DNA of 64,000 bases from Thermoplasmatota archaeon (GTDB taxonomy: Archaea > Thermoplasmatota > Thermoplasmata > UBA10834), in assembly GCA_018818785.1 (NCBI GenBank), contig JAHIRF010000005.1, positions 139,790 through 203,789 of the forward strand. The letters run 5' to 3'. How positions within the stretch are numbered: the stretch's first letter is position 1; the number at the start of each line of letters is the position of its first letter. Under the pieces are notes generated by a model. That model was given only the letters and a program-made list of their open reading frames with translations, was not told the origin of the DNA and made no database searches. Shown one piece after another: positions 24,816-47,009 of this stretch. The position numbers and the translations under genes were made by a program.

Positions 24816-25919
24816 CTACTTGATGAAGTCCAGCCCCATCGCCTCGTTCTTCCTGTTCTTCTTGGGGCCCAGGATGTGCCTGGACTTCACTCCGGTTATG
24901 ACGACCATGACCCTAATCGTCCTCTCGAGGGTCTCGTCGACGGCCGCACCCCAGATGATCCTCGCGCCTGGGCTGATCTTCGACTGGATGACTTCGGCGA
25001 CCTGTTCGGCTTCGCTCACGGTCATGTCGGAACCTCCCGTGACGTTGACGAGCGCTGCGGTCGCTTCGGATATGTCCAGCTCTATCAACGGTGAGTTGAT
25101 GGCTTCGGTGACTGCCGCGACTGCCCTGTCGTCGTCGTCCGATTCGCCTAGCCCTATCATGGCGACTCCGCCAGCCTTCATGACTGTCTTGATATCGTTG
25201 AAATCCAGATTTACCAGTCCGGGCTTGGTGACAATCTCCGTGATGCCCTTTATGGATCTCATGAGGACCTCGTCCGCCACCTTGAACGCCGCGTTCAGGG
25301 ATAGCTTGGGGACGATCTCCAGGAGCTTATCGTTTGGTATCACGATGACAGTGTCCGCGACGCTCCTCAGCCGGTCCAGTCCCCATTCCGCGTTCTCGGC
25401 CCTTATCGAGCCTTCCGCCTGGAACGGGTATGTGCATATTGCGATCGTGAGCGCTCCGCACTCCTTCGCCACCTGAGCGACGAATGGTGCAGAACCTGTC
25501 CCGGTACCACCACCGAGACCGCATGTGACGAATACTATATCGGCTCCGACGACGGACTTCTTGATCTCTTCCTCCGCCTCCCTGGCAGCCTCCTCACCGA
25601 CCTGTGGCAAGGCGCCTGCCCCGAGCCCTCTAGTGACACGCCTTCCGAGAAGTATCTTGTGTGGCGCGCGCGTCATAAGGAGATGCTGTGCGTCTGTGTT
25701 CGCAGCGTACAGCTCGGCTCCGATGATGCCTGCCTCAGCAAGCCTGTTTATCGTGTTGGAGCCGCCTCCACCGCATCCGAAGATCCTAATGGTGGTCTTC
25801 AGACCTTGGAGTATCTTCTGCAGCTCCTCATCTTCCGCCGTGAAGGATTGGAAACCTTCCGGCCTCTTCATCTGCTCTTCTTCAATTGCTGTGAGGGCAC
25901 TGTCGACGAGGGACTTCAT
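24816..25919 (-). CDS. ftsZ: cell division GTPase FtsZ (copy 1)
   Basis: [15 protein letters not shown] and a T7 loop. Start set at ATG 25919 (MKSLVDS). Confidence 0.85.
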
Positions 25920-26046
25920 CTCGGGCCTCCGTGGCGTTGTACACGTATAGTGAACGTGACAAAGTGGCAACGGCGAGCCAAGCTCACCGGTTGATTGGAC
26001 CGTAGCTGATTAGGTATCTTAAACGTTTCGGAGATGCTTTGGAGCG

Positions 26047-27168
26047 TCAGCGGACCAGATCCACCTCGCCGATGCCCTTGTATCTCTTCTCCGCCTGCTT
26101 CCCTAGAATCTGCGACGACTTGACTCCAGTAGCCACTAACATGACCCGGATGGTCTTGTCCAAGGCAGGGTCGACAGCCGCTCCCCATATGATGCGAGCG
26201 TTCGGTCCCACCCTCGCCTGTATCTCCTCCGCGGCGCGCTGCGCCTCGGATATCGTCATATCCGTTCCACCTATGACATCGATGAGCACGCCATTAGCCT
26301 CGCTTATATCGACATCGAGGAGCGGTGAGTTGATCGCTTGTTCTATCGCTTCCATGATCCTATCGTCACCTGGGGCGTCCGATTCCCCTAGACCGATCAT
26401 GGCCACTCCTGCACCCTTCATTATGGTCTTGACATCGTTGAAGTCGAGGTTCACCAGACCTGGTCTGGTTATGACCTCGGTGAGTCCCTTTATGGACCTC
26501 ATCAGTACCTCATCCGCGACCTTGAACGCCGCGTTGAGCGAGAGTCTTGGGACGACCTCGAGTAACTTGTCGTTGGGGATGACTATGACGGTGTCAGCGG
26601 AATCCCTGAGCTTGTCCAGCCCCCATTCCGCGTTCTCCATTCTCATCTTGCCCTCTCCCTTGAACGGGAGCGTGGCGACAGCGATCGTGAGTGCGCCCAT
26701 CTCCTTGGCCATGCGCGCCACTACGGATGCCGCACCTGTTCCGGTGCCGCCACCGAGACCGCAGGTGATGAAGCAGATGTGTGTGTCCGCAAGGATCTTC
26801 TTGAGTTCATCCTCCGCCTCTCTGGCCGCCTCTTCGCCTATCTGTGGGAGTGCGCCTGCGCCCAGTCCTCTCGTGACTCTGCGGCCTAGGAGGATCTTGT
26901 GCGGTACCCTGAGGACGAGGAGGTGTTGAGCATCCGTGTTAGCTGCGTACAGCTCCGCGCCTACGATACCTTCATCATGTATCCTGGCAACGGTGTTGGT
27001 TCCACCTCCACCAACACCTATGATCTTGATGTTAGTTTTGAGGCTCCGCAATATCTGCTCGAGCTCTGCGTCCACCCTTTGATCCTGGTCCAGCATCCCT
27101 GCTTCGGTGATACCAGTCCCAGGGCCTGACTCTCTTGCGATTGCGTCTTCGACGAGTGATCTCATCAT
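26047..27168 (-). CDS. ftsZ: cell division GTPase FtsZ (copy 2, tandem paralog)
   Basis: Same signatures as copy 1. Visually about 70-75% identical to it over the GTPase core. Confidence 0.85.
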   Translation of the reverse strand: MMRSLVEDAIARESGPGTGITEAGMLDQDQRVDAELEQILRSLKTNIKIIGVGGGGTNTVARIHDEGIVGAELYAANTDAQHLLVLRVPHKILLGRRVTRGLGAGALPQIGEEAAREAEDELKKILADTHICFITCGLGGGTGTGAASVVARMAKEMGALTIAVATLPFKGEGKMRMENAEWGLDKLRDSADTVIVIPNDKLLEVVPRLSLNAAFKVADEVLMRSIKGLTEVITRPGLVNLDFNDVKTIMKGAGVAMIGLGESDAPGDDRIMEAIEQAINSPLLDVDISEANGVLIDVIGGTDMTISEAQRAAEEIQARVGPNARIIWGAAVDPALDKTIRVMLVATGVKSSQILGKQAEKRYKGIGEVDLVR

Positions 27169-31622: not shown

Positions 31623-32675
31623 CTAGTACATGTTCAAGTATCGCTTGAGCGCGGCAAGCGCTACGACCGTTATCCATTGGTCTTTCTCGGGGTTCGGTCG
31701 CTCGGATACATGCCAGAAACCTTCCTTCGTCCTTGCAGCCAGAAGCCATCGTATGGGCTTCTCCATTCGCGGGTCCTCCGGGCCATATCCGTTCCATGTT
31801 AGGATGTCCAGGGCCGACAGTCCGCTCCCGAGGTATGTCGGATACTTGAATCTGGTCCAATTCTTCTCGGATTGGTAGAACGATGCGTGATAATTGCGTT
31901 TGAAGAACCGGTCGAGTATGAAGTCGATACCTCTGCGCACAGCCGCTGATTTGTGAAGGAGTTTGTGGTATGTGAGTCCCCTGATGGCCATGACCGTGCT
32001 CCAGATGCAGCTGGGTATGTCGTCATAGTCCTTCGGATCATATGCCGGCGCATCCTCACTTTCGACAAGGTCCATGAACCCACGTTTCTTCAAGCATCTA
32101 TATTTCGGCCGATACCACATATCTTGGATGTATGGGATATTCCACCCACCATCCTGCCTCTGCATGCTCAGGATCCATCGAATCAGTCTCTGGGTCCTTG
32201 GATCGTCAAACAGGCCGAATTGTTGCATGTTCCTAACTGCGAAACCGTTGTAATACGGGAGCGGGAAGGCATTGGTCCACGGTCCAGAAATATATCCTTC
32301 CTTGGTCTGCCATCCGAAGACCTTCTCAAACGATGCTCGGACATGCCCCTCATCGATGTTGGTTATGTAATCTCCGAGGGTGTATTGGTTTCTAAGGATT
32401 GTCACATATGTCCATCCGATGGGAGGTCCTGGCCCCCTCTCCTCCTCAAATCGTTTCTGTCTTGATATCGGCCATGTGCCGTCCGCGCTCTGTTTGCTCA
32501 GGAGACGCAGCTTCGCAGGATATTCAGCGCACTCTCTGTTCGTCTGCTTCATCATGGAGTCCTCATCCCCCTTCTCCATGATGACCCTTAGAAGCCAGTG
32601 TTTGACCGGAGGAGAAGATATCTGAAGCAGCTTCCTCGAAGAGTCTTCGACAACTTTGTTGATTTCAGCGCGCAT
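31623..32675 (-). CDS. prenyltransferase/squalene-cyclase-repeat (alpha/alpha-toroid) protein, paralog B
   Basis: Three QW-type repeats (LLSKQSADGTW, WILSMQRQDGGW, WLLAARTKEGFW). ATG 32675 aligns with the paralog A start. Confidence 0.5.
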   Translation of the reverse strand: MRAEINKVVEDSSRKLLQISSPPVKHWLLRVIMEKGDEDSMMKQTNRECAEYPAKLRLLSKQSADGTWPISRQKRFEEERGPGPPIGWTYVTILRNQYTLGDYITNIDEGHVRASFEKVFGWQTKEGYISGPWTNAFPLPYYNGFAVRNMQQFGLFDDPRTQRLIRWILSMQRQDGGWNIPYIQDMWYRPKYRCLKKRGFMDLVESEDAPAYDPKDYDDIPSCIWSTVMAIRGLTYHKLLHKSAAVRRGIDFILDRFFKRNYHASFYQSEKNWTRFKYPTYLGSGLSALDILTWNGYGPEDPRMEKPIRWLLAARTKEGFWHVSERPNPEKDQWITVVALAALKRYLNMY

Positions 32676-32747
32676 CTTCGAATCCACCAATGCATCGTGT
32701 GATTTGAAAGGTTTTGGATCAGCACGAATTCTGCACGTCGCGCATGA

Positions 32748-33800
32748 TCAATACATGTCTGCGTATCGAGAGAGTGTACTGATGGCTATCTCCGTTATCC
32801 ACTGATTCTTCTCGGGATCCGGCCTCTCGGACCTGTACCAGAATCCATCCTTAGACCTCATCTTCAGAAGCCATCTCACTGCCTTTTCCATGCGCTCATC
32901 CTCTGGACCGTATCCTAATATGGCCAGGATTTCTAGAGCCGAGAGCCCGCTGCCGAGATATGTTGGGTACTTCAATGTCGTCCAGTTCGTCTCAGACTGC
33001 AGTAATGTCGAGTGATAGTTCCTCTTGAAGAAGCCATCCATGAGAAAATCGGCGCCTCTCAGGACCGCCCTCCTCTTCATCATGTCTGGGTTCCAGACGG
33101 CCCCTCTTATGACGGCGAGTGTGCTCCACAGGCAGCTTGGAATATGTCTGTACTCATCGGGGTCGTAAGATGGCCGGTCCTCGCTCTCAACCAGTTTCAT
33201 AAAATTCTTCATCTTCATGTGGACATACTCTGGTCGGTAGCGCACATCCTGCAGATACGGAATGTTCCATCCACCATCATGCCGTTGCATGCTCAACAGC
33301 CATTTCATGAGCTTGTCCACTCTCGGGTCGTCCCGCAATCCGAACTCAAGAGAGTTCCTAAGTGCCAATCCGTTGTAGTGCGGTATCGGAAATGCGTCAG
33401 TGGTTGGGCCAGGAATGTACCCTTCCTTGACCTGCCAGCCAAGCATCTTCTCGAAAGAAGCTCGCACATTACCCTCGTCGATCTTGGCAACATACTCCCC
33501 GAGCATCAACTGGTTCCTCAACATGGTGGTGTATGTCCACCCGATTGGCGGCCCAGGCCCGCGCTCCTCCTCCATCCTCCTCAATCTCGATATCGGCCAT
33601 GTGCCGTCTTCACGCAGCGAATCGAGTAGATGCAGTCTAGGAGGGTATGTCTCACATTCTTTGATTGTCTGCTTGAGGACTGGGTCGTCAGAGTCCTTCT
33701 TCATCACGTCGGAAAGGAGCCAAAATCTCACCGGAGGAATCGATATCTGAAGGAGCTTCCTTGCAGACTCGTCCACCGTTCTTCGAATCTCTGTCAACAT
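32748..33800 (-). CDS. prenyltransferase/squalene-cyclase-repeat (alpha/alpha-toroid) protein, paralog A
   Basis: QW-type repeats (LLDSLREDGTW, KWLLSMQRHDGGW, RWLLKMRSKDGFW). About 55-60% identical to paralog B by eye. Confidence 0.5.
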   Translation of the reverse strand: MLTEIRRTVDESARKLLQISIPPVRFWLLSDVMKKDSDDPVLKQTIKECETYPPRLHLLDSLREDGTWPISRLRRMEEERGPGPPIGWTYTTMLRNQLMLGEYVAKIDEGNVRASFEKMLGWQVKEGYIPGPTTDAFPIPHYNGLALRNSLEFGLRDDPRVDKLMKWLLSMQRHDGGWNIPYLQDVRYRPEYVHMKMKNFMKLVESEDRPSYDPDEYRHIPSCLWSTLAVIRGAVWNPDMMKRRAVLRGADFLMDGFFKRNYHSTLLQSETNWTTLKYPTYLGSGLSALEILAILGYGPEDERMEKAVRWLLKMRSKDGFWYRSERPDPEKNQWITEIAISTLSRYADMY

Positions 33801-33889
33801 CACTGTGCCGGGAGGTCAATGTCTTTGTAGGAAATCTCTTTTTCGTAGATCGAGTCCGACGCAGTGATTTTCCTAATTCAGCTCCACGA

Positions 33890-34186
33890 TCATGATTGAA
33901 GTCCACATTCCACCGCAAACTTGAAGCCCTTCCCCTCTTCTTCTTGAACCTTCTTGTAGAAGTCGCAATTCATGCATACGATCACCTTGGGCACGAACGA
34001 TCCCGTGGGTTCTCCTCCACAGAGAGTGCCGGCGACCGCCCAGCATATCCTTCCACCATTCTTCCCATGGTTCATTCCATCCGATCGAGAGTACGTGCAC
34101 GCTGGACATACTCCGCGTTCGGATACCTTGGCTCCTCCAGGGAATCGCTGGCAATCTTTGAACTCCCAACAGTTCTGCACTCCCAT
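33890..34186 (-). CDS. small Cys-rich protein with two CW motifs (10 Cys in 98 aa)
   Basis: MGVQNCWEFKDCQRFPGG...GVCPAC...GGRICWAVAGTLCGG...CMNCDFY. GGTGAGG Shine-Dalgarno 3 nt upstream of ATG 34186. The longer ORF to 34588 overlaps the antisense transposase fragment and is rejected. Confidence 0.45.
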   Translation of the reverse strand: MGVQNCWEFKDCQRFPGGAKVSERGVCPACTYSRSDGMNHGKNGGRICWAVAGTLCGGEPTGSFVPKVIVCMNCDFYKKVQEEEGKGFKFAVECGLQS

Positions 34187-34324
34187 TTCCTCACCACTCC
34201 CAAACGTGCTTCGGATAGAGCACGGTCCGGAGCATGGAATGACGGTACATTTCTGATAAGTCTTGCCATGAATCGGTCTGGAATGCGAAAGCATTGATAC
34301 GCCATCTGAGAGCCATAGAACGGC

Positions 34325-34687
34325 ATGCCGAGTTATCCCAACAAGACTATCAAGAAGGAGCTCGGGAGTTTCAAGCGCAAGGGTGATATGCCTTCGGGCA
34401 TCAAGCAGTACACGCTTCACAAGATCTTGCCTAGCATCCGCGCAGAGAAGTCGAATGACAAGAATGAAAGACTTCACGGCACGGAGAAATCGAGAACCAA
34501 GATCATGAGGGCATTCGACCACGAAGCGGGAGCGTCTGCTTTGATGGACGGATGGAGGGTTCATTACGATATGATTCGGACTCATCAAACGCTCGTCATG
34601 ACACCAGCCGAAGCCGCTGATATTCCGTCATTGCCAGGCTTCAAGTGGTATGAACTAATAAAGCTGGCTAGCAGGCAAAGCTCTTGA
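34325..34687 (+). pseudogene. truncated IS6-family transposase (C-terminal about 75 aa only)
   Basis: NERLHGTEKSRTKIMRAFDHEAGASALMDGWRVHYDMIRTHQTLVMTPAEAADI aligns with the C-terminus of the full transposase at 37891-38880 (IERFHNTLKDRVKILRGFGSRGGASTALDGFVIQYNFLRRHTSLKGMTPAERAGI). Confidence 0.55.
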
Positions 34688-34762
34688 ATATCAGAAAATG
34701 AAATTTAGAGGCAAAAATCATATATAGTGCGATTCAATAGTGGGTAACATAAAATCCCCAGT

Positions 34763-35473
34763 ATGACCCTTCTCTTCACGAAAAGGGGAATGCTGGGTTC
34801 CACTTCTTCAATCATAATCTCCTGGAGGAATGATAAATCGGACGCTATCATATTCATTGATGGAAACAATTTCTATCACAACTCACGATCAATGGGAATT
34901 AAGCCTGGGAGCATAGATTTCGATAAGCTCATCAATTTCATCTGTTTAGAGTTCAAATGCAATAGAAAGCAAGTTCGTTACTACAATTCTGAACCAGATA
35001 TTTCGGATGGAACGAAGAAATATTACGGTGCTCAGAAATTCTTCAGCGAACTAAAAAAGCTCGGTTTTATCGTTCAGACGAGAAAACTCCAGAAGCAATC
35101 AAACGAAAAAGAGATCAATGCAAGGATTAAGGTCATTGATGACGAGGAATATTGTCCTATATGCAGACCACTTGTTGAGAATGCATGTATTCAATGCGTG
35201 GGTCGATTCAGCAAAAAGGAAAAGGGCATTGATGTTTGGATAGCCATTGATATGCTAAATCTTTGTCTGTTGCGTAATGAATGCGATATGTGTATATTAG
35301 TGTCGGGTGATGGTGATTTTGTTCCCGCCCTGGATATTATCAAGGGATCTGGCAAGGAGGTTGCATCCACATCCGTATACCATGGATATTCGAATCTCCT
35401 GAGAGAGAAACATAGATTCAAGACAATAACAGAACAGGAACTCGAAGGACTCTTGAAACAAGATCGTTTTTGA
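34763..35473 (+). CDS. NYN/LabA-like domain protein (predicted RNase fold)
   Basis: Motifs IFIDGNNF, GIDVWIAIDML and ILVSGDGDFVPAL. Region looks AT-rich. Confidence 0.6.
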   Translation: MTLLFTKRGMLGSTSSIIISWRNDKSDAIIFIDGNNFYHNSRSMGIKPGSIDFDKLINFICLEFKCNRKQVRYYNSEPDISDGTKKYYGAQKFFSELKKLGFIVQTRKLQKQSNEKEINARIKVIDDEEYCPICRPLVENACIQCVGRFSKKEKGIDVWIAIDMLNLCLLRNECDMCILVSGDGDFVPALDIIKGSGKEVASTSVYHGYSNLLREKHRFKTITEQELEGLLKQDRF

Positions 35474-35670
35474 CTAATGCACTCAGACTCGCCACCATCC
35501 GAAGATTTACAGCGGAAAACGTCAGACGGAAACCACCCGTTAATTAGACAGAACCGAGACCAAGGGCATTGTTGCATTAAGTATGATTCAGTAGATGTCT
35601 CCGAAATGCTTGTCTGACGATTCATATGGCCAGTCGTCGGAATATTGTGAGCCCTCATCATGTCACATTC

Positions 35671-36273
35671 TCATTTCAGAGGAACTAGTAGCCACCGATC
35701 ATGATTAAGGAAGGGCACGAAGATGTTGCCACCGCTGTCTCTGTTGGCCAAATACGTATGAATCCCGATTTGGTTCAAGGACAGATGCATGAATCGTTCT
35801 ATGTAGAATTCCCAGGGTCTCTCCGATGTCGTCCTTGGTTCCTTTTCCAGGAGCTTTAGGGCGGTCTCAGAGCAGTCTTGCAGGTATTTCATGAAGATTG
35901 GCCAACCTTCTTGTCCAAATCCATCTCCCTTTTCTTTGCTGCCCTCTTCTCCAGTATAATCATCACCCGGTTTTCCATGTGCTCCGAAATGTGGTGACGG
36001 ATCGCTGATGCCCTTCAATCTTTCTTCGAGCTCGATTCTGATTTCTGCAATATCTGAATCGACCCCATAAAACCTCAATCTGATCTCTGGAGTTTTCGGT
36101 TCCAAGACTGGGCATTCTTCTCTTAGAAAATGCCATCTCATGTCCTGCCTACGCTCTTGCGCACGTTCCTTTACCTCATTCACATAGTTTTTCACAAAGC
36201 CAAGCAGGACTCTATCGAAATCCCCCGCATTTCTCAGATGGATATTTACCTCAACCCACTTGTATTCACTCAT
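35671..36273 (-). CDS. hypothetical protein
   Basis: No confident family. ATG 36273 (MSEYKW...) preferred over the GTG at 36282. Confidence 0.4.
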   Translation of the reverse strand: MSEYKWVEVNIHLRNAGDFDRVLLGFVKNYVNEVKERAQERRQDMRWHFLREECPVLEPKTPEIRLRFYGVDSDIAEIRIELEERLKGISDPSPHFGAHGKPGDDYTGEEGSKEKGDGFGQEGWPIFMKYLQDCSETALKLLEKEPRTTSERPWEFYIERFMHLSLNQIGIHTYLANRDSGGNIFVPFLNHDRWLLVPLK

Positions 36274-36352
36274 TTGAACCACCTACGGTCATGAATGCGT
36301 CTGCTGATAGATTATCATTCTTATCTGGGCCAGTCAAATCTGAACGCGGCAC

Positions 36353-36730
36353 TCAACATTCTTCAGGCCAAGGTGTCGATGTTATTCCCTGCATCTTGCG
36401 CATTTCCTTATGGTTCCCAACCCACCAGCAAATTATCGTATTCTTGGGAACCTCATTGCAGGGGCATCTATGCTTGGTCTGATGAATAGTCCCTATGCAT
36501 TCCCAGCAGAGAGTCACGATTATTCGGAGGTCTTTTAGGACCTTTATCTCCCTATCGCCAGCCAGGCCCGCAGTGAGTGGGTAAGTGAAGTGTTTTGGAT
36601 TCTCAAGAACCTTCTTCAATTTCTTCTCGATAGCGCTACGCGCTATGGGGTCACCAATACATTTGAGACATTCCTTGAATTTTGGATGAAAAAGAAAAGA
36701 TGGTGGTTCATTCGGACTCAAAGACTTCAC
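36353..36730 (-). CDS. RelE/ParE-like toxin-fold protein with a Cys/His-rich C-terminus
   Basis: About 125 aa. FKECLKCIGDPIARSAIEKKLKKVLENPKHFTYPLTAGLAGDREIKVLKDLRII resembles a RelE/YafQ-type fold. GTG start overlapping the upstream Panacea gene. Confidence 0.35.
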   Translation of the reverse strand: MKSLSPNEPPSFLFHPKFKECLKCIGDPIARSAIEKKLKKVLENPKHFTYPLTAGLAGDREIKVLKDLRIIVTLCWECIGTIHQTKHRCPCNEVPKNTIICWWVGNHKEMRKMQGITSTPWPEEC

Positions 36731-37394
36731 TCCATGTCAGGAGTTCCTTTGCCTTAAATGGTGTCTCCAGCGTTTCTCTGATCTCTGGGTATCTGTATGA
36801 GAACATGAGATCCAGAGTTCGTATCCATTCTTTAGGAATCTCAAATTCGTAACTGACATCCCGCAGCTTGATCGGATTGAGCAATGGGGTACCATCTGGT
36901 ATGTCGTCTATCTTTGCCGTCGAGTCTCTATAGGGAACTTGGCATCTGTGACTCAGATCCCTCAATTCCCTACCAGTATACTCTCCAAGATGGTGAATCC
37001 AACCACTTAGATGGTCGATTATTGGGGCGTTCTCTCCCGAATCAATGAACTCAGACATCTGGGAGACAAGCTCTTTCCCTTCCTTTGTTATCGCCTCGAT
37101 AGCTTTGTTCTGACCTTTTAACTCTACGAATCCAATCTGGTTAAAGAGGTCAAGGTCCTTGACAATCTCAGCACTCATCGGTCCATGTGTCCATTTAAAG
37201 AATTGGTAATTGATTCCTTTTATCCGCTTTACCTGAGCATCGTACTGATTGAAAAACGCGGTCTTCTGAATTTTCCATTTATCCAAAGTGCCATATTCAG
37301 AAAGCCCATTCATTGTGTACAATAACAGCACTTTGTTTATAATCTCATCAACCTCTGCGAGGTCGTCCATCTCACCCTGCTCGACGCTTATCAT
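36708..37394 (-). CDS. Panacea (DUF4065)-domain antitoxin-like protein
   Basis: KVLLLYTMNG...KWTHGPMSAEI matches the Panacea pattern (KLLYfa...hGPv). Co-directional and overlapping with the downstream toxin-like gene. Confidence 0.5.
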   Translation of the reverse strand: MISVEQGEMDDLAEVDEIINKVLLLYTMNGLSEYGTLDKWKIQKTAFFNQYDAQVKRIKGINYQFFKWTHGPMSAEIVKDLDLFNQIGFVELKGQNKAIEAITKEGKELVSQMSEFIDSGENAPIIDHLSGWIHHLGEYTGRELRDLSHRCQVPYRDSTAKIDDIPDGTPLLNPIKLRDVSYEFEIPKEWIRTLDLMFSYRYPEIRETLETPFKAKELLTWSEVFESE

Positions 37395-37890
37395 TCCTAT
37401 CCGTCCAAACGACTATCTATTCCATCAAATTCTCACTTTCACGGGTGCCAATGTTAGCTAGTATAATATGATTTTGATATGTCATTCAGCGATATTAAGC
37501 TTGCCGACTGACGCATTCATAATGATTTCATACCGGGATTTTTTGTATGCTGGCTAACAAATTCTAGAAATGAGAACGCGGCTCAAATCATTCGATAGAC
37601 TGAAACGACTTGTTTTCGACGACCCCACACTTCAGCTCGGGCTAGAGGATTTCGGCCTGGCTGGGGATAGCTACTTATACAACACGCACCAATTAGGGTA
37701 TATTGAGGGTGCAAATAACCCCTCTTGGATGGGACGGTATGGAAGTAACGATACCCGATGCCGACATAGTGATCGAGGCCGGAGTAACGGAAGATGGCCG
37801 GATATACGGCCTCAAGAAGTACGCTGGCCGTACGGTCAAGATTGTCGTGCTAGAGGAGAAACGGAAGAAGTAAATCGACACCAAACAACA

Positions 37891-38880
37891 ATGGGTGACT
37901 GGGCCGGAGGTTGCCGCCTCCGCCCAGTCGGGAGGCCCGATACCTTGAATATCAGACCCCCAGAGAATCACATCAAGCTTGAACCGAATAAGACTTTCGC
38001 AGGTAGGACCGAAACTGGTCATGTAGGATGCAAGTTCTGCAAGAGCCACCAGGTCGTCAAGAATGGCAAGCGTGGCGATAAGCAGCTCTACAAGTGCAAA
38101 TCATGTGGCAAGCAATTCGTAGACAATGAATGCTTTCCGAGGATGCGCACCAGTGCACGAGCAATCTCCGTCGCTCTCGAAGCCTATTTCGATGGTCTCT
38201 CACTCGCTAAGGTCGTCAATCTTCTGAGGCGCGTGTATGGAATCACCATAAACAGGGCGACAGTCTGGAGGTGGATTCAGAAGTACGTTCCTTTGGTCAA
38301 GAAGATGATGGGCCAGTTCACCGCCAATGCAACTAGTTCATGGCACGCAGATGAGACTGCAGTGAAGATCAAGGGAAATATCCATTGGTTCTGGGATGGC
38401 ATCGATTATGATACGCGCTTCATCGTGATGGGTTTGCTCACTCGAAGACGTTCTGTCTCTAACGCTCGCAAGTTCTTCATTGGAGCCAAGGCACAAGTGG
38501 GCGGAAAGGCTCCTGGAGTCATAGTGACTGATGGCTGTGGCTCCTATCGGAAGGGTGTCACAAAGGCGTTCTGGAGAAAGGTCCAGCTTGGAGAATGCAC
38601 TCTTATCCAGAAAGCTGGGTTAAGGGCTAGGTTGGGTAAGCTCTCCAACAATGTGATCGAACGATTCCACAACACCCTCAAAGACCGTGTCAAGATTCTA
38701 AGAGGATTCGGGAGTCGAGGTGGCGCATCAACTGCCCTTGACGGATTCGTGATTCAGTATAACTTTCTTCGAAGGCATACCTCATTGAAAGGTATGACTC
38801 CTGCAGAAAGGGCTGGAATCAGACTACCGACCGTGATGGGATGGGGCGACCTCATACAGTGGTCTCTGAAGCGTTCATAG
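37891..38880 (+). CDS. IS6-family DDE transposase with N-terminal Zn-finger
   Basis: DDE region HADETAVKIKG...WFWDGIDYDTRFIV matches the IS6 DETyvKvnG...YlyRAVD pattern. N-terminal CKFC...CKSC zinc ribbon. The ORF-track extension from 37570 is low-complexity and probably non-coding. Confidence 0.6.
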   Translation: MGDWAGGCRLRPVGRPDTLNIRPPENHIKLEPNKTFAGRTETGHVGCKFCKSHQVVKNGKRGDKQLYKCKSCGKQFVDNECFPRMRTSARAISVALEAYFDGLSLAKVVNLLRRVYGITINRATVWRWIQKYVPLVKKMMGQFTANATSSWHADETAVKIKGNIHWFWDGIDYDTRFIVMGLLTRRRSVSNARKFFIGAKAQVGGKAPGVIVTDGCGSYRKGVTKAFWRKVQLGECTLIQKAGLRARLGKLSNNVIERFHNTLKDRVKILRGFGSRGGASTALDGFVIQYNFLRRHTSLKGMTPAERAGIRLPTVMGWGDLIQWSLKRS

Positions 38881-38897
38881 TGCAATAGTGCAGATAC

Positions 38898-39770
38898 TCA
38901 CTTAGGTTTTCTGAAATGCATCATGTTGTGATGTTGATGGTTTATTCTGTATGCATATGGGTATCCGAAAGGGAACAATGGCTTGACGGGCTGGAGCAAC
39001 ACAACGGTCCCTGAGAACTCGTAACCAATCTTCTCCATCATTGGCACTATGTCTGCCTGGACGCATTTCTCCTTCTTCTTCACCGTGAAGTCGCTCATTA
39101 TGAGAGTGCAATATCTACCGTTCCTAAGCCTGGAGAAGGTCTTCGACATGATGTCCGAGAGAGACTGAATGAACCCACTGTACTCATCGATATTGCCCAA
39201 GTCGTTCTTTCTGTCAGTGTAGCAGGCTACACCTTCTCTCGCCCCCATGCGATACAGTTTCCCATTGTGCTGTCGTATCCCCTTTCCATTGTTCTTGAGG
39301 ATGTTATGGTAGGGCGGAGAGGTCACCACGTAGTCGACCATTGGCACATTATCGAGTTTCTTCAGGGAGTCGCCGATGATATACTCGTATTCTTCTAGAT
39401 CTCTCGACCTCAGTCTCTTCTGGGCAATCTTCTTGTAGTCTGCATTTATGTCAATTCCTATTGCTTTTCGTCCTACCTGGTTGGAGGCAAGCAGTGTCGT
39501 TCCGCTCCCAGCGAACGGGTCAAGCACCGTCATCCCTTTCTTTGTGAACAACTCGACAAGTCTTTGAATATCCCTGACGAGAAATGGTGCGGGATGACTG
39601 TAGGCTTCCTTGTCGTCTGCGCAGCCAACAGATTGCCAGAAGCTGCCGGATAGTAGGAGCCAGTCACGTCCTGACAGATTGTTCAGCTTATTCCTAATAT
39701 CATATTTGCCAGGCTTGTTCTCCTCCGACAGGGGCTTCCTCGGGTTCTTCTTCTCGGTTGTACTCTTCAT
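38898..39770 (-). CDS. site-specific DNA methyltransferase (N6A/N4C, PF01555-like)
   Basis: Motif I VLDPFAGSGTTLLAS and motif IV TSPPYH. 4-nt overlap with the upstream large methyltransferase gene. Confidence 0.75.
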   Translation of the reverse strand: MKSTTEKKNPRKPLSEENKPGKYDIRNKLNNLSGRDWLLLSGSFWQSVGCADDKEAYSHPAPFLVRDIQRLVELFTKKGMTVLDPFAGSGTTLLASNQVGRKAIGIDINADYKKIAQKRLRSRDLEEYEYIIGDSLKKLDNVPMVDYVVTSPPYHNILKNNGKGIRQHNGKLYRMGAREGVACYTDRKNDLGNIDEYSGFIQSLSDIMSKTFSRLRNGRYCTLIMSDFTVKKKEKCVQADIVPMMEKIGYEFSGTVVLLQPVKPLFPFGYPYAYRINHQHHNMMHFRKPK

Positions 39771-42136
39771 TTCAATTCCTTTGCCGTTCGTGTGATTTCC
39801 TTGATGGTTGGCTCGGAGAACCCTGCTAGACGCTCAACATCTCTATATGTTAGGTATCTCCAACTGTTTTCCTCGAATGCTCTGACGAACAGAGGGTCAC
39901 AAACCCTCTTCAATTCCGATTCCCGAGCTATGGGTATTACCATGAACTTGGGAATTGTCTTCTCCGTGTTGGATGCTCTTTGAATGGCTGATGTGAATCC
40001 AGTGGAGTTCTCAACCTCGAAAACGCATTCTATGGACGCCCCATCTTCTGATAGCCAGAGGACATCAATCATCTCTATTCGTTCCAGTTTCAATGATTCA
40101 TAGCTGCCACTGAGGGTAGATAGGTCCACAAATGTCGAAAGGTCACGAAGAGGCTTGTTGAAATCGTAGAATTCGGGCTGCTCTCGTTTTCCCACGAATA
40201 CCGAGAATCCGTTCTTCCTTCCTGCGGCACAGAGCAAGCTAATGATGCGGCTGTGTTCACCAACCGTTTTCACCACCACATCCTTTATCTTCCAAAATCC
40301 ACCAGCTCGAGAGGCGTACTTCTCCAATACCTTGACGATGCCACGTGGGTCGGGAGTGAGGCCATTTGGGTATGTCTGGAAGAGTTCTCCGATGACATCG
40401 TCAAGTCTCACAGAAACTCTTCTTCTGAGTATGGACAGAACTAATTCCTCCACACGGTCTTGAAGTGGTCTGTCTGGGTAGTTAATGTGGCTCTGCGGTT
40501 CTCTGAACCACCATATGTCGCCAGAACCGTCGAATTCGTTCGGCATCACTACGAATGTGCCCTCCTCCCCAGCCTCTCGTCTCAGAACTCTTTCAATTTC
40601 CTGGCTGTAGTCTCTCGGATGGATGTATCCTGCTTGGATCATCTCTGGAATCAACCCCGCAACAATGAACGTGTATGGTGTAGGTTCGTTTCGAATCGCG
40701 ATTATCTCTATGGCTTTCTGCACAATGAAATGCTCTAGACCAGACTGGTCATCGGTAAAATCCACATCCCTGCGTTTGACACATCGTATGTAGAAGTCGG
40801 CTCCAGACGTTCCATACGGATTAGAGACGTTGGATTCACCCGACCTACGATTGTATTGGTGTGTCACTTTGTCGAATCTAAATCCCGCTATCTTGACTGC
40901 ATTCACAAAGTCGTTCCATTCGCGGATCTTCTTGTGGTGGAATGTCACCACCAAGTAGCCATCATCCTTGAGCACTTGATGCATTTGCTTGAACGCATTC
41001 GCCATTCTCGTTCTGTACTGCTCTCTACTAGCTAGACCCTCCTTTATCGTAATCTCAGAACTGAGATCGGGCGCGTATTTCTTATCCACTTCCTTGAGCC
41101 AGACGAGCCATATCAGACTCAGGTCAAGATAGAAGACCAATCCTGCGTATGGAGGGTCCGTGATTATGAAGTCGATGCTTTTCTCTTTAACGTACTTTGA
41201 TAAATCCGCCACATCCAGTGTCCCATAGTTAATGTCCTTGCTCCCGTCGATTTTCTTCTTGACGTTGAGACATGAGACAGATATGTCTTTCTTCAACCTC
41301 TTCTTGGCGTCAATCATTGCTGAGCGAACACTTTGTTTACCCAGGCATGCCCTCTCGAAGATGATTAGAGGGTTCTGTTCAAGGGATTTGCTTCGTATCA
41401 TATAGTCGGCTCTTCCCCAACTCCCTGAGAAATCTCTTTGGGATGCCTTGCTTCTGGGAACCACCATCTTGAATGTAAGATGGAGTGTCTGGATGAATCC
41501 ATACAGCAACTGATGACGAATATCTCTGTCGTCGACCTTGAGTATCTTGTCGAATATTGATGAGAGCAAGTACAGGTTCCTCCTTGTCCAGAGGAACTCG
41601 AAACTGTCCCCACCCACATCTAGGATGAATTTGTGAGTAATGGATGGTGTGGTGGGAAACTTATCCTTTGGATACTTGAATGGTATATCGATGCTCAGCA
41701 TCTGAATCGCTTTCTCTCTGTCAACATCCTCCGCCGGAAGCCGATATTTCTTGCCCGAATTCGTTTCTAGGCACACTTCGTCAACGTTTCCAGATTTCCA
41801 TCTGTAATTGTATACATGAGTGCCCTGGCCCTGATGGAGTCTCATGTAGTGCTCCTTGTACACCAAATCCGATTCTATCGCTTCCTTGATTCTCAGGAAC
41901 TCTTCCACGAATCTTGGCTCATCGAAATTCGTGTCGAACACCTCTATCGTGAACGATGTGATTGGATTCAAGTCGAAGCACAGTGCTCTCCTTCGTGCAA
42001 TGACCGTCTCAAATGCGGACATTGCGCTGCCAGCAAAAGGATCAAGCACCAAGCCACCAGGTGGGCAGTAGCATTCAACATATCTCCGCCAGATATTGTG
42101 AGGTTTCTTCCCCCAGTACTTCATTGCGGTGTACAT
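39767..42136 (-). CDS. large DNA methyltransferase fusion protein (MTase module plus about 300-aa C-terminal domain of unknown function)
   Basis: Motif I GGLVLDPFAGSAMSAFE near the N-terminus and DPPY motif IITDPPYAGLV about 300 aa later. C-terminal region with ECVFEVENST...K. ORF-track TTG start at 42211; the first ATG gives 42136. Confidence 0.55.
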   Translation of the reverse strand: MYTAMKYWGKKPHNIWRRYVECYCPPGGLVLDPFAGSAMSAFETVIARRRALCFDLNPITSFTIEVFDTNFDEPRFVEEFLRIKEAIESDLVYKEHYMRLHQGQGTHVYNYRWKSGNVDEVCLETNSGKKYRLPAEDVDREKAIQMLSIDIPFKYPKDKFPTTPSITHKFILDVGGDSFEFLWTRRNLYLLSSIFDKILKVDDRDIRHQLLYGFIQTLHLTFKMVVPRSKASQRDFSGSWGRADYMIRSKSLEQNPLIIFERACLGKQSVRSAMIDAKKRLKKDISVSCLNVKKKIDGSKDINYGTLDVADLSKYVKEKSIDFIITDPPYAGLVFYLDLSLIWLVWLKEVDKKYAPDLSSEITIKEGLASREQYRTRMANAFKQMHQVLKDDGYLVVTFHHKKIREWNDFVNAVKIAGFRFDKVTHQYNRRSGESNVSNPYGTSGADFYIRCVKRRDVDFTDDQSGLEHFIVQKAIEIIAIRNEPTPYTFIVAGLIPEMIQAGYIHPRDYSQEIERVLRREAGEEGTFVVMPNEFDGSGDIWWFREPQSHINYPDRPLQDRVEELVLSILRRRVSVRLDDVIGELFQTYPNGLTPDPRGIVKVLEKYASRAGGFWKIKDVVVKTVGEHSRIISLLCAAGRKNGFSVFVGKREQPEFYDFNKPLRDLSTFVDLSTLSGSYESLKLERIEMIDVLWLSEDGASIECVFEVENSTGFTSAIQRASNTEKTIPKFMVIPIARESELKRVCDPLFVRAFEENSWRYLTYRDVERLAGFSEPTIKEITRTAKELK

Positions 42137-42468
42137 CGGAGGACGAACATCTTCAACGAGAGCGTAATTGATGTGCGTCACTGCGAAATCAGTTTCCTGC
42201 TGCCCAATCAATTCTTGCCACCTCTCTGTATCCAGTTGAGGATGGCCTCTTCGACCGCAGCCTTGATGTCGCCCTTCTTAAAACCGCCAGACCGTTTGTA
42301 GATCTCGTCACGCAGAGCTTTGTCGACCTCGTGGGAAATCTCAACCTTGGTCAAGTTATCGCAGATGTATGCACGTAAGTACTTATGTACTTTGGTACTT
42401 TAGTTCCTAAGTGTCTGTAACCGGAGCCCTGCGCGTTGATGGGTGTGTTACCGAAGGTAGGACACATC

Positions 42469-42951
42469 TCATCTTCGTGGCTGGTAAACCTTCTTATGAT
42501 AACCATTTCGTCTGAAGAGCTTATATGCTCGCGTGTAGACGTTTCGCCAATCACCCTTGCTCAGGTCCTTGTAGTGACAATTGAGGCCCCGTCTCGTCTT
42601 TGAAGCGATATAGTCTAGACAGCGATGACCATAGGCGATTCTCACATAATCGGTTGCAGTTTCTGGGCGAATTCCTATCGAGCCGACAAAACCGTCAATC
42701 ATGTCGCGTATCCCCTCAGGAGAATGCCAATAATCGAGGTCACGATGGTCTGGGCCAAATTTCTTTGCGTTCTTGTCCATTCTTCTATGAACGCTCGTTC
42801 CGTCAGTATCCTCGTATATCACTCCGTTCTTCACGAGGCGTTTCTCATCAAAATCTAGATGATAGTCCAGAGATGGCACCATTTCCACCCGGAGGCATAG
42901 ATGCCCCTTCGGCCTATTGATGATATTGCAGATCCCATCTGTTAGAGTCAA
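42469..42951 (-). CDS. hypothetical protein
   Basis: Protein-like composition, no recognisable motif. 4-nt overlap with the upstream ORF suggests co-transcription. Confidence 0.35.
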   Translation of the reverse strand: MTLTDGICNIINRPKGHLCLRVEMVPSLDYHLDFDEKRLVKNGVIYEDTDGTSVHRRMDKNAKKFGPDHRDLDYWHSPEGIRDMIDGFVGSIGIRPETATDYVRIAYGHRCLDYIASKTRRGLNCHYKDLSKGDWRNVYTRAYKLFRRNGYHKKVYQPRR

Positions 42952-43544
42952 GAACTCCGAGGTTCCCGCTCTTTCTCCCGCTTTCCAACAATTTTCATCA
43001 GCTGAGGGATGTCCTTCTCCACCCTGGCCGATAGCTTTTCAATTGCCTTCATTACAGGTCTGATTTCAAATGTCGAATTCAAGAATACGACGGTCATCGT
43101 GGGAGCATCGAAGAAGCCAAAATGAGGTGCATTGAGGGGCAGCATCGTGTGCTTCTGGAAATTCACTCCCCCTCTCCTGAAGCCAGGGTTGGCCTTCATC
43201 CACTTGTCGAGCCTTTCGTCGAAGTGGTCGAAATGGTCCCTCATCTTGCGTGAGTTCAACGGGGATGTTTCGAGGATGGAGAATCGCGACTTCAGATGCC
43301 TTGCCCTTTCTTGGCACCTTTCCGATTTGTTAGGTGGCCAGAATGATCTAGAAATACCTGCGGATGAACGGAGCAAAGCCTTCAGACAGAACCAGACCCG
43401 ATCAGCATCTCGAACAGCAATGCTGCACAACAGACCGCGATAAGCCATCTTGGCGTGCAGACAATCGTCTTCCAGTGAGTACTCGAAACCAAGAATCTCC
43501 ATATCCTCCATGCGGTCACCTAATGATGATATGGGATGTCCCAT
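42948..43544 (-). CDS. hypothetical protein
   Basis: No recognisable motif. Sits in the accessory island. Confidence 0.35.
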   Translation of the reverse strand: MGHPISSLGDRMEDMEILGFEYSLEDDCLHAKMAYRGLLCSIAVRDADRVWFCLKALLRSSAGISRSFWPPNKSERCQERARHLKSRFSILETSPLNSRKMRDHFDHFDERLDKWMKANPGFRRGGVNFQKHTMLPLNAPHFGFFDAPTMTVVFLNSTFEIRPVMKAIEKLSARVEKDIPQLMKIVGKREKEREPRSS

Positions 43545-43764
43545 CTCTTAGGATGTATGATTCTGGGCTTCTTCCTTTGGACAAGATCGGGCCTTGGCTC
43601 TCCATCGCTTCCTAGCGGAATCATGGTCATACAACTGAGAACCCTCTCGATTGTCATATGGTTTTGGGCTGCATGTAGGCTACAGGATTGGGCTGTACTA
43701 TCGGCTACCCGCAGTCAATACACTTATATGTGCCACTTGAGTAGAATGCATCCAAGGGAATACC

Positions 43765-43980
43765 GTGAAGTCATACGAAAGAGCAAGGAGCGCCGAAGGG
43801 AAGAAGAGAGAGCCGTACTGCGCCAAGGTGAGCATCGTCGAAACCCAGATGCGAAACATGTGGCCGGATGCGTACTTGATGCCCAGAGAAGCGTACTTGA
43901 TACACCTGCGCATCCTGATTAGCGAGATGACTGCGTTGATAAAGGCGACCGAGGCTGAGATCAAACGAGTAGAAAACTGA
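43765..43980 (+). CDS. hypothetical small protein
   Basis: 71-aa ORF on the strand opposite its neighbours. Weak support. Confidence 0.2.
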   Translation: MKSYERARSAEGKKREPYCAKVSIVETQMRNMWPDAYLMPREAYLIHLRILISEMTALIKATEAEIKRVEN

Positions 43981-43987
43981 TTGGTGG

Positions 43988-44671
43988 TTACTCGGAATCT
44001 GAAGGAGGCAACGAATACAGTTCCTTATCTACCATCTTGTTGAACTCCAGCTGAGCATTGCGCGCCTCCTTATACGTCTCATTCGCATCCAATGAAGACA
44101 TACCTGCGAAGAGGATTAGCACGGACCCAACGACAATCGCTGCAATCTGAAAGCTATCTCCCACCAGAGAGTATGCCAGTATTAAGAATCCCATGCCTAA
44201 CAGACATATCATCGCACGGAGGACCAGCGAGGAACACTTGTCTTCGGCAGTCCATCCCTCAGTGTAGAGTGTTGACACCTTCTCACACTCCCCGAACTTG
44301 CTGGTCAGCTCTTCTGTCAATTCCTTGAGTTGGCCATGCTCTTCGGGCGTAGGGGGCGTCTTCTCAATAAGCGCTTTGACTGCATTGAGGACTTCTGATG
44401 TGTCCTGGTCCTCAGTCATTGCCTTAATGAGACTTTTCCGAATCTCCGCAAATTCAGGGTTTCGCTTCAGGATGTTATCGATCTGTTGAACCGATTTCGT
44501 GAGGTACGTGAGGAAGAACTGATTGACAAGTCTTGAGCGCATAGCTACGTGTTGGTCCCTCCCTTCTTTTCGGAACCTCTCCGCATGAGATCGCAGGTGA
44601 ACGAAGAGCGCCACCAACGCGCCCCCACCGACCAAACACGCGGCTCCAATCGCAACAAAATCATCGGCCAT
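43988..44671 (-). CDS. hypothetical membrane protein
   Basis: N-terminal transmembrane helix (FVAIGAACLVGGGALVALFV) and two C-terminal helices around a long helical region. Confidence 0.4.
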   Translation of the reverse strand: MADDFVAIGAACLVGGGALVALFVHLRSHAERFRKEGRDQHVAMRSRLVNQFFLTYLTKSVQQIDNILKRNPEFAEIRKSLIKAMTEDQDTSEVLNAVKALIEKTPPTPEEHGQLKELTEELTSKFGECEKVSTLYTEGWTAEDKCSSLVLRAMICLLGMGFLILAYSLVGDSFQIAAIVVGSVLILFAGMSSLDANETYKEARNAQLEFNKMVDKELYSLPPSDSE

Positions 44672-44680
44672 AGTCTCTCC

Positions 44681-45310
44681 CTATTCAACTGGCGGTCCTT
44701 CGTACTCGGACTCCTTCGCAAATGATGGATAGTGCTCGTACACGTGCGTTATCAAATCATGAATGGGCATCATATTGTACTGTATCTTGATGTCTACGAG
44801 CCCCTGTCTCAAGCGCGGTTCAAGCGAATCGTAAGCCATCCTTGCTCGTTCAAAACCTTCAGGAGTCAGGCTATAGACTTCACTCCCGAAGCCTGAGGTA
44901 ATCTGGATGAGCCCTTTCCTAATCAGGTCTGAGAAGTCATTCCAAGCACCGTCTGAATACGGCCCGTACTTGTATGGTCGAAATGAGTAGAACCCTTTGA
45001 CATCTTTGAATCGCATCAAGAAGAGAAACAGTTCCTTCATGAGCCGTGTCTTCCCCGCAATCGGTTCGTTGTATCGCTGCCTCCTTCCACCCGCGAAGAG
45101 AAGCATCAGTATCCAGTCTTCTAGTCGAGTAGGAATCTCGCTAATAGTGGCTTTCCTCTCTTCCCAGGGCATCCCTAGCATTTCCCGAATCGCTCCCTTT
45201 CGAGAGCCATTATACCATTTGTGCCATTTAAGCCTAGGCCACTTCTGAGGGTGCTCATCACCATCACCCGACTTGTGACAGAACTGGCAGGACCAGGTTC
45301 GTTCATTCAT
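44681..45310 (-). CDS. hypothetical protein with an N-terminal Cys cluster and a possible winged-helix region
   Basis: WSCQFCHKSGDGDEH at the N-terminus. KTRLMKELFLFLMRF...YSFRPYKYGPYSD resembles Panacea-type or winged-helix segments. Confidence 0.35.
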   Translation of the reverse strand: MNERTWSCQFCHKSGDGDEHPQKWPRLKWHKWYNGSRKGAIREMLGMPWEERKATISEIPTRLEDWILMLLFAGGRRQRYNEPIAGKTRLMKELFLFLMRFKDVKGFYSFRPYKYGPYSDGAWNDFSDLIRKGLIQITSGFGSEVYSLTPEGFERARMAYDSLEPRLRQGLVDIKIQYNMMPIHDLITHVYEHYPSFAKESEYEGPPVE

Positions 45311-45549
45311 ATCCGAGGTCTATCCAATCAAAAAGGCACGATTCCCAGGCTCAAAGTGAGTCTGACGCCCTGAAGGTGCCCATTTCGGAGACCTCTGAAA
45401 TCGTCAGAATCTCGTCTGACTGGACTACCCAGATTCATCCTACTTAATGCAACAATGCCGAGACCAAGAAAGGTATAAATACTCACGAGTTTATACTGAC
45501 ATTTGTCTGACAATTCGAGCAATATCGTCCGACGCCGGGAGACTTCCAA

Positions 45550-45959: not shown

Positions 45960-47009
45960 ATGCTCAACAAGTTGATCCAGGATGCCCTCGAGACGGAGCG
46001 CGACTTCGAGGTACATCTTGCTCCGAAGATATGCGTCGTGGGCTGCGGTGGCGGCGGTTCGAACAGTGTGCACAGGATCAATAGAGTAGCGCTGGAAGGT
46101 GTCGACACCATCGCTATCAACACGGACAAGTTCCACTTGGCCAGGACCGATGCGAAGAAAAGGCTGCTCATAGGCGAGCATGCGACATTCGGATATGGCA
46201 CGGGCGGAGACCCCGATATAGGCGAGAAGGTAGCGTATGACGCGATGGACAAGATAGAGGCGCTGGTGCGCCAATACGATATCGTGTTCGTCACGGCTGG
46301 CATGGGCGGCGGAACGGGCACGGGAGTCGCGCCAGTCGTAGCAGAGGCTGCGCGAAGACACGGCGCGATATCAGTCGCACTCGTGACGATACCCTTCGAT
46401 ATCGAGAAAGGGAGGTTGCGCGTCGCGTTCAACGGGATCGCGAAGCTGAGGGAGAGCGCTCACAGCACGATCATACTAGACAACAACCGTCTGTTGAAGA
46501 TCGCGCCCAAGTTGCCGATCGAACAGGCGTTCATGGTGATGGACCAGCTCATCGTCGAGGTCGTCAAGGGTGTGACCGAAACGGTGTGCGAGACCAGCAT
46601 GATCAATCTGGACTTCGCAGACTTCAGGAGCCTGATGCTCAAGGGTGGCGCGTCCACCGTGCTCTACGGTGAGAGCGAGGACGCTCAGAAGGTGGTCGCA
46701 GAGGCGATCAGCAACCCACTACTGGATATCGACTTCGAAGGCGCCACAGGCGCGATGATCCATCTCACCGGTGGTCCGTCGCTATCCCTGCGGAAGGCGT
46801 ACGAAGTCTTCAACGGTATCACGAACAAACTCGGAGATTGCGCCCACATCAAACTGGGCGCAAGAATAGATCCGGACATAGGCCAGAGCATCAAGCTGAT
46901 GGCGATAGTCACCGGCGTCCGGACACCCGAAGATACGGACGCGTTCAGGCTCCCAGAAATAGACGGGCTGATCAGCGCCCGGATCGCCATGGCAAACGTG
47001 TTAGGATGA
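45960..47009 (+). CDS. FtsZ-family GTPase, divergent third paralog
   Basis: GCGGGGSN and GGGTGTG tubulin/FtsZ signatures. Shorter than the other two copies and lacks the usual C-terminal tail. Confidence 0.7.
   Translation: MLNKLIQDALETERDFEVHLAPKICVVGCGGGGSNSVHRINRVALEGVDTIAINTDKFHLARTDAKKRLLIGEHATFGYGTGGDPDIGEKVAYDAMDKIEALVRQYDIVFVTAGMGGGTGTGVAPVVAEAARRHGAISVALVTIPFDIEKGRLRVAFNGIAKLRESAHSTIILDNNRLLKIAPKLPIEQAFMVMDQLIVEVVKGVTETVCETSMINLDFADFRSLMLKGGASTVLYGESEDAQKVVAEAISNPLLDIDFEGATGAMIHLTGGPSLSLRKAYEVFNGITNKLGDCAHIKLGARIDPDIGQSIKLMAIVTGVRTPEDTDAFRLPEIDGLISARIAMANVLG

Follow-up and report, generated by a model that had tools for sequence, protein, structure and literature searches.

A stand-alone two-CW gene and two tandem toroid genes in one Thermoplasmata lineage are probably syntenic neighbors rather than a precursor/enzyme system

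The locus described here comprises a small cysteine-rich gene and two tandem paralogous genes within a 64,000-nucleotide stretch of a Thermoplasmatota archaeon genome (assembly GCA_018818785.1, contig JAHIRF010000005.1, positions 139,790 to 203,789 of the forward strand), hereafter called the window. The described family closest to the small protein is NCBIfam NF045718, the "two-CW domain-containing protein", which is defined by an ~80-residue module with seven conserved cysteines and two Cys-Trp pairs and is common in anaerobic bacteria and methanogens. The two-CW domain has no solved structure and no detectable structural relative. The paralogs resemble enzymes built on the alpha/alpha toroid: the monodomain terpene cyclases (MstE, PDB 6SBB; the myxobacterial 8PAK and 8PAJ), the squalene-hopene cyclases (SHC; PF13243/PF13249) and, at the level of the superfold, the prenyltransferase beta subunits and LanC. 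In the last two groups the Zn ligands are placed topologically at the N-terminus of an inner helix. A first-pass annotation of this locus had likened it to clusters for ribosomally synthesized and post-translationally modified peptides (RiPPs), with the small protein as precursor and the toroid proteins as modifying enzymes. Our analysis favors, with moderate confidence, a different reading, in which three functional genes share a common syntenic position in one Thermoplasmata lineage and do not form a precursor/enzyme system. Their adjacency would be inherited synteny in a sub-lineage, possibly accompanied by co-transcription.

The three open reading frames (ORFs) are arranged head-to-tail on the minus strand, separated by 89 nt between the small gene and toroid B and by 72 nt between toroid B and toroid A, in agreement with the co-orientation and gaps under 90 nt described in the first-pass annotation:

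33890..34186, minus strand: stand-alone two-CW protein, 98 aa; ORF with GGTGAGG before the ATG at 34186; MBU1158353.1, KKE24_03335
32748..33803, minus strand: toroid B, 350 or 351 aa, with its start at ATG 33800 or GTG 33803; 100% match to P0001; KKE24_03330
31623..32690 (longest ORF form), minus strand: toroid A; P0015, 350 aa, on the same contig; KKE24_03325

NCBI labels KKE24_03335, KKE24_03330 and KKE24_03325 as "hypothetical protein" in a Candidatus Thermoplasmatota metagenome-assembled genome (MAG), where the small-protein sequence is identical to ours. The start of toroid A is most likely the ATG at 32675, which gives a 350-aa protein and has GGTGGA 7 nt upstream; the 355-aa form that begins with TTG is probably overlong, because the NCBI versions are 350 aa. 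ENA gene calls skip the 98-aa ORF (L083 9477-10000, corresponding to window 33801-34324) and NCBI annotates it; small Cys-rich genes such as this one are easily lost in automated calling.

Each of the three genes is maintained by selection. The ratio of nonsynonymous to synonymous substitution rates (dN/dS, or omega) for the small gene was 0.09-0.14 against the intact orthologues at loci L001 and L002, and 0.20 over the 48 codons that could be aligned to a pseudogene at locus L003. For the toroid genes, dN/dS against orthologues was 0.09-0.28. Purifying selection therefore acts on all three genes (omega 0.09-0.28). Chance ORFs can be dismissed because the small protein matches NF045718 with an E-value of 1.3e-29, the toroids have 328 homologues and dN/dS is low; the coding reality of the small ORF, on which the first-pass annotation depended, is thus upheld. 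Relaxed selection on the window two-CW gene was considered and rejected on the basis of the omega values against L001 and L002. We also rejected a known defence system, since PADLOC returned no match for any of the three proteins.

The small protein matches NF045718 over the full length of the profile, scoring 102.4 bits against a cut-off of 35, with residues 4-83 aligned to profile positions 1-80 of 80; a search with two-CW models had been suggested from the sequence and proved well chosen. The protein contains nine cysteines (positions 6, 12, 27, 30, 48, 56, 71, 74 and 94), not ten as first counted, and carries the motifs NCWEFKDC, GVCPAC, GRICWAVAGTLCGG and CMNCDFY. Across 115 two-CW sequences, C6-W7, C48-W49, C12, C27, C71 and C74 are invariant, C56 is conserved in at least 90%, and several Gly and Arg residues are also invariant or nearly so. 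The window protein possesses all seven conserved Cys and both CW pairs and has the common stand-alone size. It differs from the family in its central segment, which reads GGEPTGSFVPK versus the consensus GGKVQGxFAxK, and in two extra, lineage-specific cysteines, C30 and C94, that lie outside the conserved set. Additionally, its host belongs to the Thermoplasmata, where two-CW proteins are rare, and its locus lacks an adjoining signalling gene. Pfam, which has no model for the two-CW family, returned only noise for this protein (HIPIP, E 0.11; zinc finger, E 0.32).

Searching 5.8 billion proteins yielded 557 relatives of the small protein, the best-scoring 120 of which are ~90-160 aa long. Aligned relatives are 51-65% identical to the window protein over its whole length, and their sources include Planctomycetes, Nitrospirae, Deltaproteobacteria, Elusimicrobia, Zixibacteria, Armatimonadetes, Methanosphaerula and Methanofastidiosia. 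Such full-length conservation across phyla is the opposite of what is seen in a hypervariable RiPP precursor.

The genomic and domain context of these relatives links the two-CW family to signalling, both through fusions and through neighboring genes. A metagenome scan added 80 two-CW loci, and the following domain combinations were found in single proteins:

L098, L114, L116, L129, L140, L161, L162 and L165: two-CW with cyclic-nucleotide-binding and Ser/Thr kinase domains
L119: C-terminal two-CW on a methyl-accepting chemotaxis protein (MCP; MCPsignal/HAMP/CZB), by Pfam
L092: two-CW with a histidine kinase (HisKA/HATPase_c), by Pfam
L097: two-CW with PAS, by Pfam
L155: two-CW with DUF4118 and Usp, by Pfam

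In the eight metagenome loci of the first kind, the fusion protein is ~550 aa and the two-CW domain is N-terminal to the cNMP_binding and Pkinase domains, as confirmed with Pfam. Whether joined to Ser/Thr kinases, histidine kinases, chemoreceptors or PAS, two-CW occupies one end of the protein. Genes near two-CW domains tell a similar story. Methanosphaerula carries two pairs of two-CW and response-regulator genes plus a GAF histidine kinase (GAF-HATPase), and on an Elusimicrobia contig the order is CheW, two-CW, a periplasmic-binding protein and an MCP. Another stand-alone locus contains CheB, a response regulator, CheW and two tandem two-CW genes, and a further one a response-regulator ATPase, a GGDEF response regulator and an adenylate/guanylate cyclase. 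Overall, a signalling gene is fused to the two-CW domain or lies within 2.5 kb of it in 26 of 45 two-CW loci of at least 5 kb, and the density of signalling genes is 0.165 per kb within 2.5 kb of two-CW versus 0.035 per kb further off, a 4.7-fold difference. With such fusions and neighbors, two-CW fits the role of a sensory input module and not that of a RiPP precursor.

We propose that the cysteines of the two-CW domain would bind a metal or Fe-S cofactor, and that the domain would then inform a partner of redox, metal or gas status through protein-protein contact. Two-CW is probably a sensory input module with a Cys-ligated cofactor; its association with signalling is observed, and the cofactor and the signal are inferred. 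The metal/redox alternative offered in the first-pass annotation stays plausible for the small protein. A link between two-CW and NiFe-hydrogenase, seen at two early loci, was rejected as a general association when it appeared in 0 of the 80 metagenome loci. Separately, at a Methanofastidiosia locus (L087 794-5289) the two-CW gene lies between MatE transporter and HPr-kinase-C-like genes, with a radical SAM gene ~1.9 kb away; this is the sole two-CW context seen with any RiPP-like flavor.

The toroid proteins are paralogs with 62% identity by alignment, and the description of two 350-aa proteins with QW repeats was borne out: both carry QW-type repeats (KWLLSMQRHDGGW and RWLLKMRSKDGFW) along with the weaker units DGTW and GWQVKEG. 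For paralog B, the AlphaFold model (predicted local distance difference test score, pLDDT, 91.8; predicted template modelling score, pTM, 0.90) shows ~12 helices in hairpins, consistent with a single-domain (alpha/alpha)6 toroid and with the fold first proposed. Foldseek searches with this model ranked class II terpene cyclases first (E 2e-5 to 1e-3, template modelling score, TM, ~0.5), the top matches being SHC, drimenyl-PP synthase, Tpn2 and MstE; the fold hits also included other toroids. Profile searches gave matches to SHC with E 2.5e-13 for the core family profile and 1.3e-24 for the broader family profile, and to the monodomain cyclases 6IJ1, 8PAJ, 8PAK and MstE with E 1e-8 to 1e-5; RabGGTase beta was reached only with the broad-family profile (E 0.009). 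Because sequence profiles match the terpene-cyclase/prenyltransferase superfamily only, the assignment of the toroids to this superfamily is solid.

Within the superfamily, the catalytic hallmarks of the described enzymes do not carry over. In the Pfam searches suggested in the first-pass annotation, SQHop_cyclase_C/N fell just under the gathering score (25.6 versus 26.1 bits for B; 24.9 versus 26.2 for A). PF00432 (Prenyltrans) gave 14.3 bits against a cut-off of 26.5 for B and no match for A, LANC_like (PF05147) gave no match at E up to 1, and the CHG motif was found in 0 of 84 family ORFs. No prenyltransferase alpha-subunit (PPTA-type) gene is located within 10 kb of the window toroids. The D.DD motif is not conserved and occurs anywhere in the sequence in only 14 of the 84 ORFs. 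When SHC is aligned to the family, its PDV(D)DTAVV segment corresponds to YPTYLGSGLSAL, an alignment that is low-scoring over this stretch and anchored by the next QW repeat, and no conserved acidic cluster is found at any of the six inner-helix N-termini in the toroid alignment.

Instead, a separate set of motifs is invariant in the core family (DGTWPI, GPGPPxGWT, LRN, PHYNG, PSCxW, FFxxNxH, NWT and GSGxxAL). By sequence and predicted secondary structure, most invariant residues lie in the loops entering the six inner helices. The loop face leading into the inner helices is the canonical pocket or active-site side of toroid enzymes, and this placement of the invariant residues therefore points to a functional pocket. 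Invariance in the core family includes C224, located where an inner helix begins, and H264, neither of which is conserved in the broader family. We suggest, only weakly, that the cytoplasmic toroids might bind a ligand that is hydrophobic and isoprenoid-like, and perhaps convert it through non-canonical chemistry.

Compared with the known relatives, the window toroids share an architecture with MstE, 8PAK and 8PAJ, in which ~350 aa fold into one (alpha/alpha)6 toroid that bears QW-type repeats, a similarity detected by both sequence profile and fold. They differ in lacking a DxDD or DxD acid and a biosynthetic gene context, in TM-scores of only ~0.3-0.5, and in having their own invariant motifs, such as DGTWPI and PSCxW. 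The QW repeats of SHC align with the toroid family; SHC, however, has two domains versus one in the window toroids, and its catalytic motif is missing from them. To the prenyltransferase beta subunits and LanC the likeness lies in the toroid superfold and in the invariant Cys of the core family at an inner-helix N-terminus, whereas the toroids score under the PF00432 cut-off and lack a LANC_like match, CHG and an alpha-subunit gene, and neither the Cys (C224) nor the His (H264) is conserved across the broader family.

The core toroid family contains 328 homologue clusters at 90% identity. In a library of 1.84 billion representatives, two full-length entries stand for the whole core family. Below them lies a gap in E-value from 1e-121 to 1e-33, followed by a broad set of ~320-345-aa proteins. 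Only a few members of this set carry a source name; these belong to Odinarchaeia and Methanomassiliicoccales, and every one is annotated as "hypothetical". Of the distant relatives tested, the majority exceed the Pfam SQHop_cyclase_C threshold, scoring 33-53 bits. Among 185,579 species genomes we recovered 77 toroid loci, all in Thermoplasmata/Methanobacteriota MAGs, with 2-4 loci in several genomes. The toroid family is seen only in Thermoplasmata and is nested in a broader ~330-aa set whose named members are archaeal.

For each of these 77 loci and the window (78 in total) we inspected 10 kb on either side. The toroid orthogroups occupy separate, stable syntenies with unrelated neighbors and scattered copies per genome; depending on the orthogroup, the neighbors are TatD/MFS/FtsZ, an ABC transporter, DUF72, Rad50, an ADP-forming CoA ligase, GNAT, TauE, a NosD-like protein or a PAS kinase. 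Neighbor clustering over the 77 loci revealed no common partner, only orthogroup-specific housekeeping genes, and the toroid loci showed no isoprenoid or peptide-maturation context. The largest apparent neighbor clusters turned out to be the toroid gene read in alternate frames. An ABC-transporter link was rejected as not general, because the gene adjoins the toroid in only ~4-5 loci of the window's own orthogroup (orthogroup A). At one locus of a distant relative (L168 1507-6017), the ~338-aa toroid gene is found just downstream of an amine-oxidase/phytoene-desaturase-type flavoprotein gene, with an ICMT/PEMT-family methyltransferase gene ~2.8 kb away, a possible isoprenoid hint from a single locus.

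In order for the trio to be a module, its parts should recur together, and they seldom do. A two-CW gene was present within 10 kb at 5 of the 78 toroid loci (the window, L001, L002, L003 and L012), with hidden Markov model (HMM) and motif scans in agreement. The reverse scan covered 89 two-CW loci and found a toroid at one (L090), with an aldo/keto reductase gene between the two; no two-CW locus outside the Thermoplasmata in this set has a toroid. All six cases of adjacency belong to the window's syntenic orthogroup, orthogroup A, where they amount to ~6 of the 13 loci with enough upstream sequence. Two-CW is missing near the other ~7 of 13 and near all other toroid orthogroups. Thus, the six cases may derive from a single ancestral arrangement, and the neighborhood conservation expected from the first-pass annotation is confined to one syntenic position. 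At L012 there are two two-CW copies, the nearest of which is divergently oriented relative to the toroid.

At L003 (6370-6700), in the genome closest to the window, the two-CW gene is a pseudogene: 2 bp have been deleted within the ICW codons, and TGT has become TAT (C6Y). Both toroid genes downstream remain full-length ORFs, which indicates that the toroids are not dependent on the two-CW gene. The conserved C56 is also lost in L002 and in the metagenomic protein P0121.

The tandem toroid genes themselves have diverged unevenly. Between the window and L003, whose flanks are 97-98% identical with synonymous divergence (dS) of ~0.1, dS is 1.13 for toroid B and 0.23 for toroid A. Against L001 the pattern is reversed, at 0.41 for toroid B and 1.22 for toroid A, and the DNA of the lone toroid gene of L002 aligns to both window paralogs in overlapping stretches. 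This mosaic divergence suggests allele exchange or recombination between the tandem copies.

The block of two-CW, toroid B and toroid A resides in conserved core synteny. On one side are genes for an amino-acid permease, TatD, MFS, two FtsZ proteins, SecE, Spt5 and L11, and on the other a ribbon-helix-helix (RHH) gene, FtsZ and a SpoU-type methyltransferase gene. The first-pass annotation had noted that the trio sits next to insertion-sequence and island DNA and took this as consistent with an accessory function. The adjacency is real: an ~11-kb island occupies window 34283-45419, at a guanine-plus-cytosine content of 0.44-0.50 versus ~0.55-0.58 in the flanks. It is, however, an insertion specific to the window genome and is missing from the orthologous loci L001 and L002, so it lends no support to an accessory role for the trio. 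The island contains:

34763-35473: NYN-domain gene
37570-38880: DDE transposase
38898-39770: N6/N4 methyltransferase
39767-42211: 814-aa methyltransferase with an NmeDI-like C-terminal domain

Together, the two methyltransferase genes probably constitute a restriction-modification unit. Of the island, L003 has kept no more than the initial ~385 bp (34283-34668), a stretch that overlaps a 120-aa ORF. The window has three FtsZ/tubulin-family genes: a tandem pair on the minus strand (24816-25970 and 26047-27168) that adjoins SecE, Spt5 and L11, and a third on the plus strand (45960-47009) after the gene for a small tandem ribbon-helix-helix protein.

Several observations weigh against our reading of the trio as three functional genes that share a syntenic position. 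The same gene order is found in L001 and L003, and L002 keeps it with only one toroid gene. A two-CW gene is found no more than ~1.5 kb upstream of an orthogroup-A toroid in the window clade, in L012 and in L090, and recurrence in three lineages with only ~60% identity is more than a one-off. The co-orientation, the 72-89-nt gaps and the lack of an obvious oligo-T terminator are compatible with a single transcript; when the two intergenic gaps were inspected by eye, neither a TATA-like box nor an oligo-T run was seen. On the functional side, no signalling gene lies within 10 kb of the window two-CW gene, the location of the putative toroid pocket is argued from sequence and predicted secondary structure, and the literature searched yielded no paper on either the two-CW domain or the toroid family.

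One alternative is a lineage-specific sensor-effector pair, in which the two-CW protein would control the orthogroup-A toroids, or be matured or chaperoned by them, as co-transcribed and interacting partners. Such a pair would account for the order and orientation kept in the window and in L001, L002 and L003, and for the return of two-CW just upstream of orthogroup-A toroids in L012 (in two copies) and L090; it would also supply the partner that a stand-alone two-CW protein needs where no kinase or response-regulator gene is nearby, and it sits well with the purifying selection on the window gene (omega 0.09-0.14). We nevertheless regard it as quite unlikely. All cases share one syntenic position and may reflect a single ancestral event, more than half of the assessable orthogroup-A loci (~7 of 13) and every other orthogroup do without two-CW, and two-CW loci outside the Thermoplasmata have no toroid. 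The arrangement is also loose where it does recur, given the divergent orientation at L012 and the intervening aldo/keto reductase gene at L090, and it has decayed at L003 (pseudogene) and in L002 and P0121 (loss of C56). In sum, there is no evidence for coupling of two-CW and toroids, and nothing positive supports a clade-specific link. The RiPP-like system, in which the Cys residues of a 98-aa precursor would be prenylated or cross-linked by two toroid enzymes, rests on analogy with LanC and the prenyltransferase beta subunits and appears highly improbable to us. What recommends it is a small Cys-rich ORF upstream of duplicated toroid genes, co-oriented and with short gaps, a superfamily that includes enzymes acting on Cys peptides, and the invariant C224 (at an inner-helix start) and H264 of the core family; the Methanofastidiosia two-CW gene that adjoins an HPr-kinase-C-like gene, ~1.9 kb from a radical SAM gene, could be added. 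Given the conservation pattern, this reading is strongly disfavored: homologues of the proposed precursor in distant phyla are 51-65% identical to it over its full length, and kinases and chemoreceptors carry the same domain as a fusion. The proposed enzymes lack LanC and prenyltransferase signatures (no LANC_like match, no CHG, 14.3 versus 26.5 bits for Prenyltrans, no alpha subunit nearby), and the broader family does not keep C224 and H264. Moreover, precursor and enzymes are seldom adjacent (5 of 78 toroid loci, 1 of 89 two-CW loci), the precursor gene is pseudogenised at L003, and no protease, transporter or leader-recognition gene is present.

A different possibility concerns the toroids alone and makes two-CW irrelevant: they could be true class II-type monodomain terpene cyclases, MstE-like and beta-only, which use a non-canonical acid to form a cyclic isoprenoid or meroterpenoid product. 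The best Foldseek and profile matches are indeed class II cyclases, including the monodomain MstE, 8pak, 8paj and 6ij1, and the distant relative at L168 has amine-oxidase/phytoene-desaturase-type and ICMT/PEMT genes in its vicinity. In addition, PMC12414744 reports that the MstE clade includes archaeal sequences and that the acid motif of MstE is DxD, not DxDD, which counts in favor of this possibility. Set against the differences from MstE described above, in acid, gene context and TM-score, we consider it doubtful. Our preferred reading remains that of three functional genes in a shared syntenic position.

On this preferred reading the trio matters little as a "system", since the evidence points to neighboring genes and to no conserved module. 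The two families matter more in their own right. The two-CW domain is extremely conserved and widespread in anaerobes, and learning which cofactor it binds and which signal it reads would establish it as a new sensory input domain. Thermoplasmata and other archaea possess a large family of single-domain QW-repeat toroids without known catalytic motifs, which could bear on archaeal isoprenoid chemistry.

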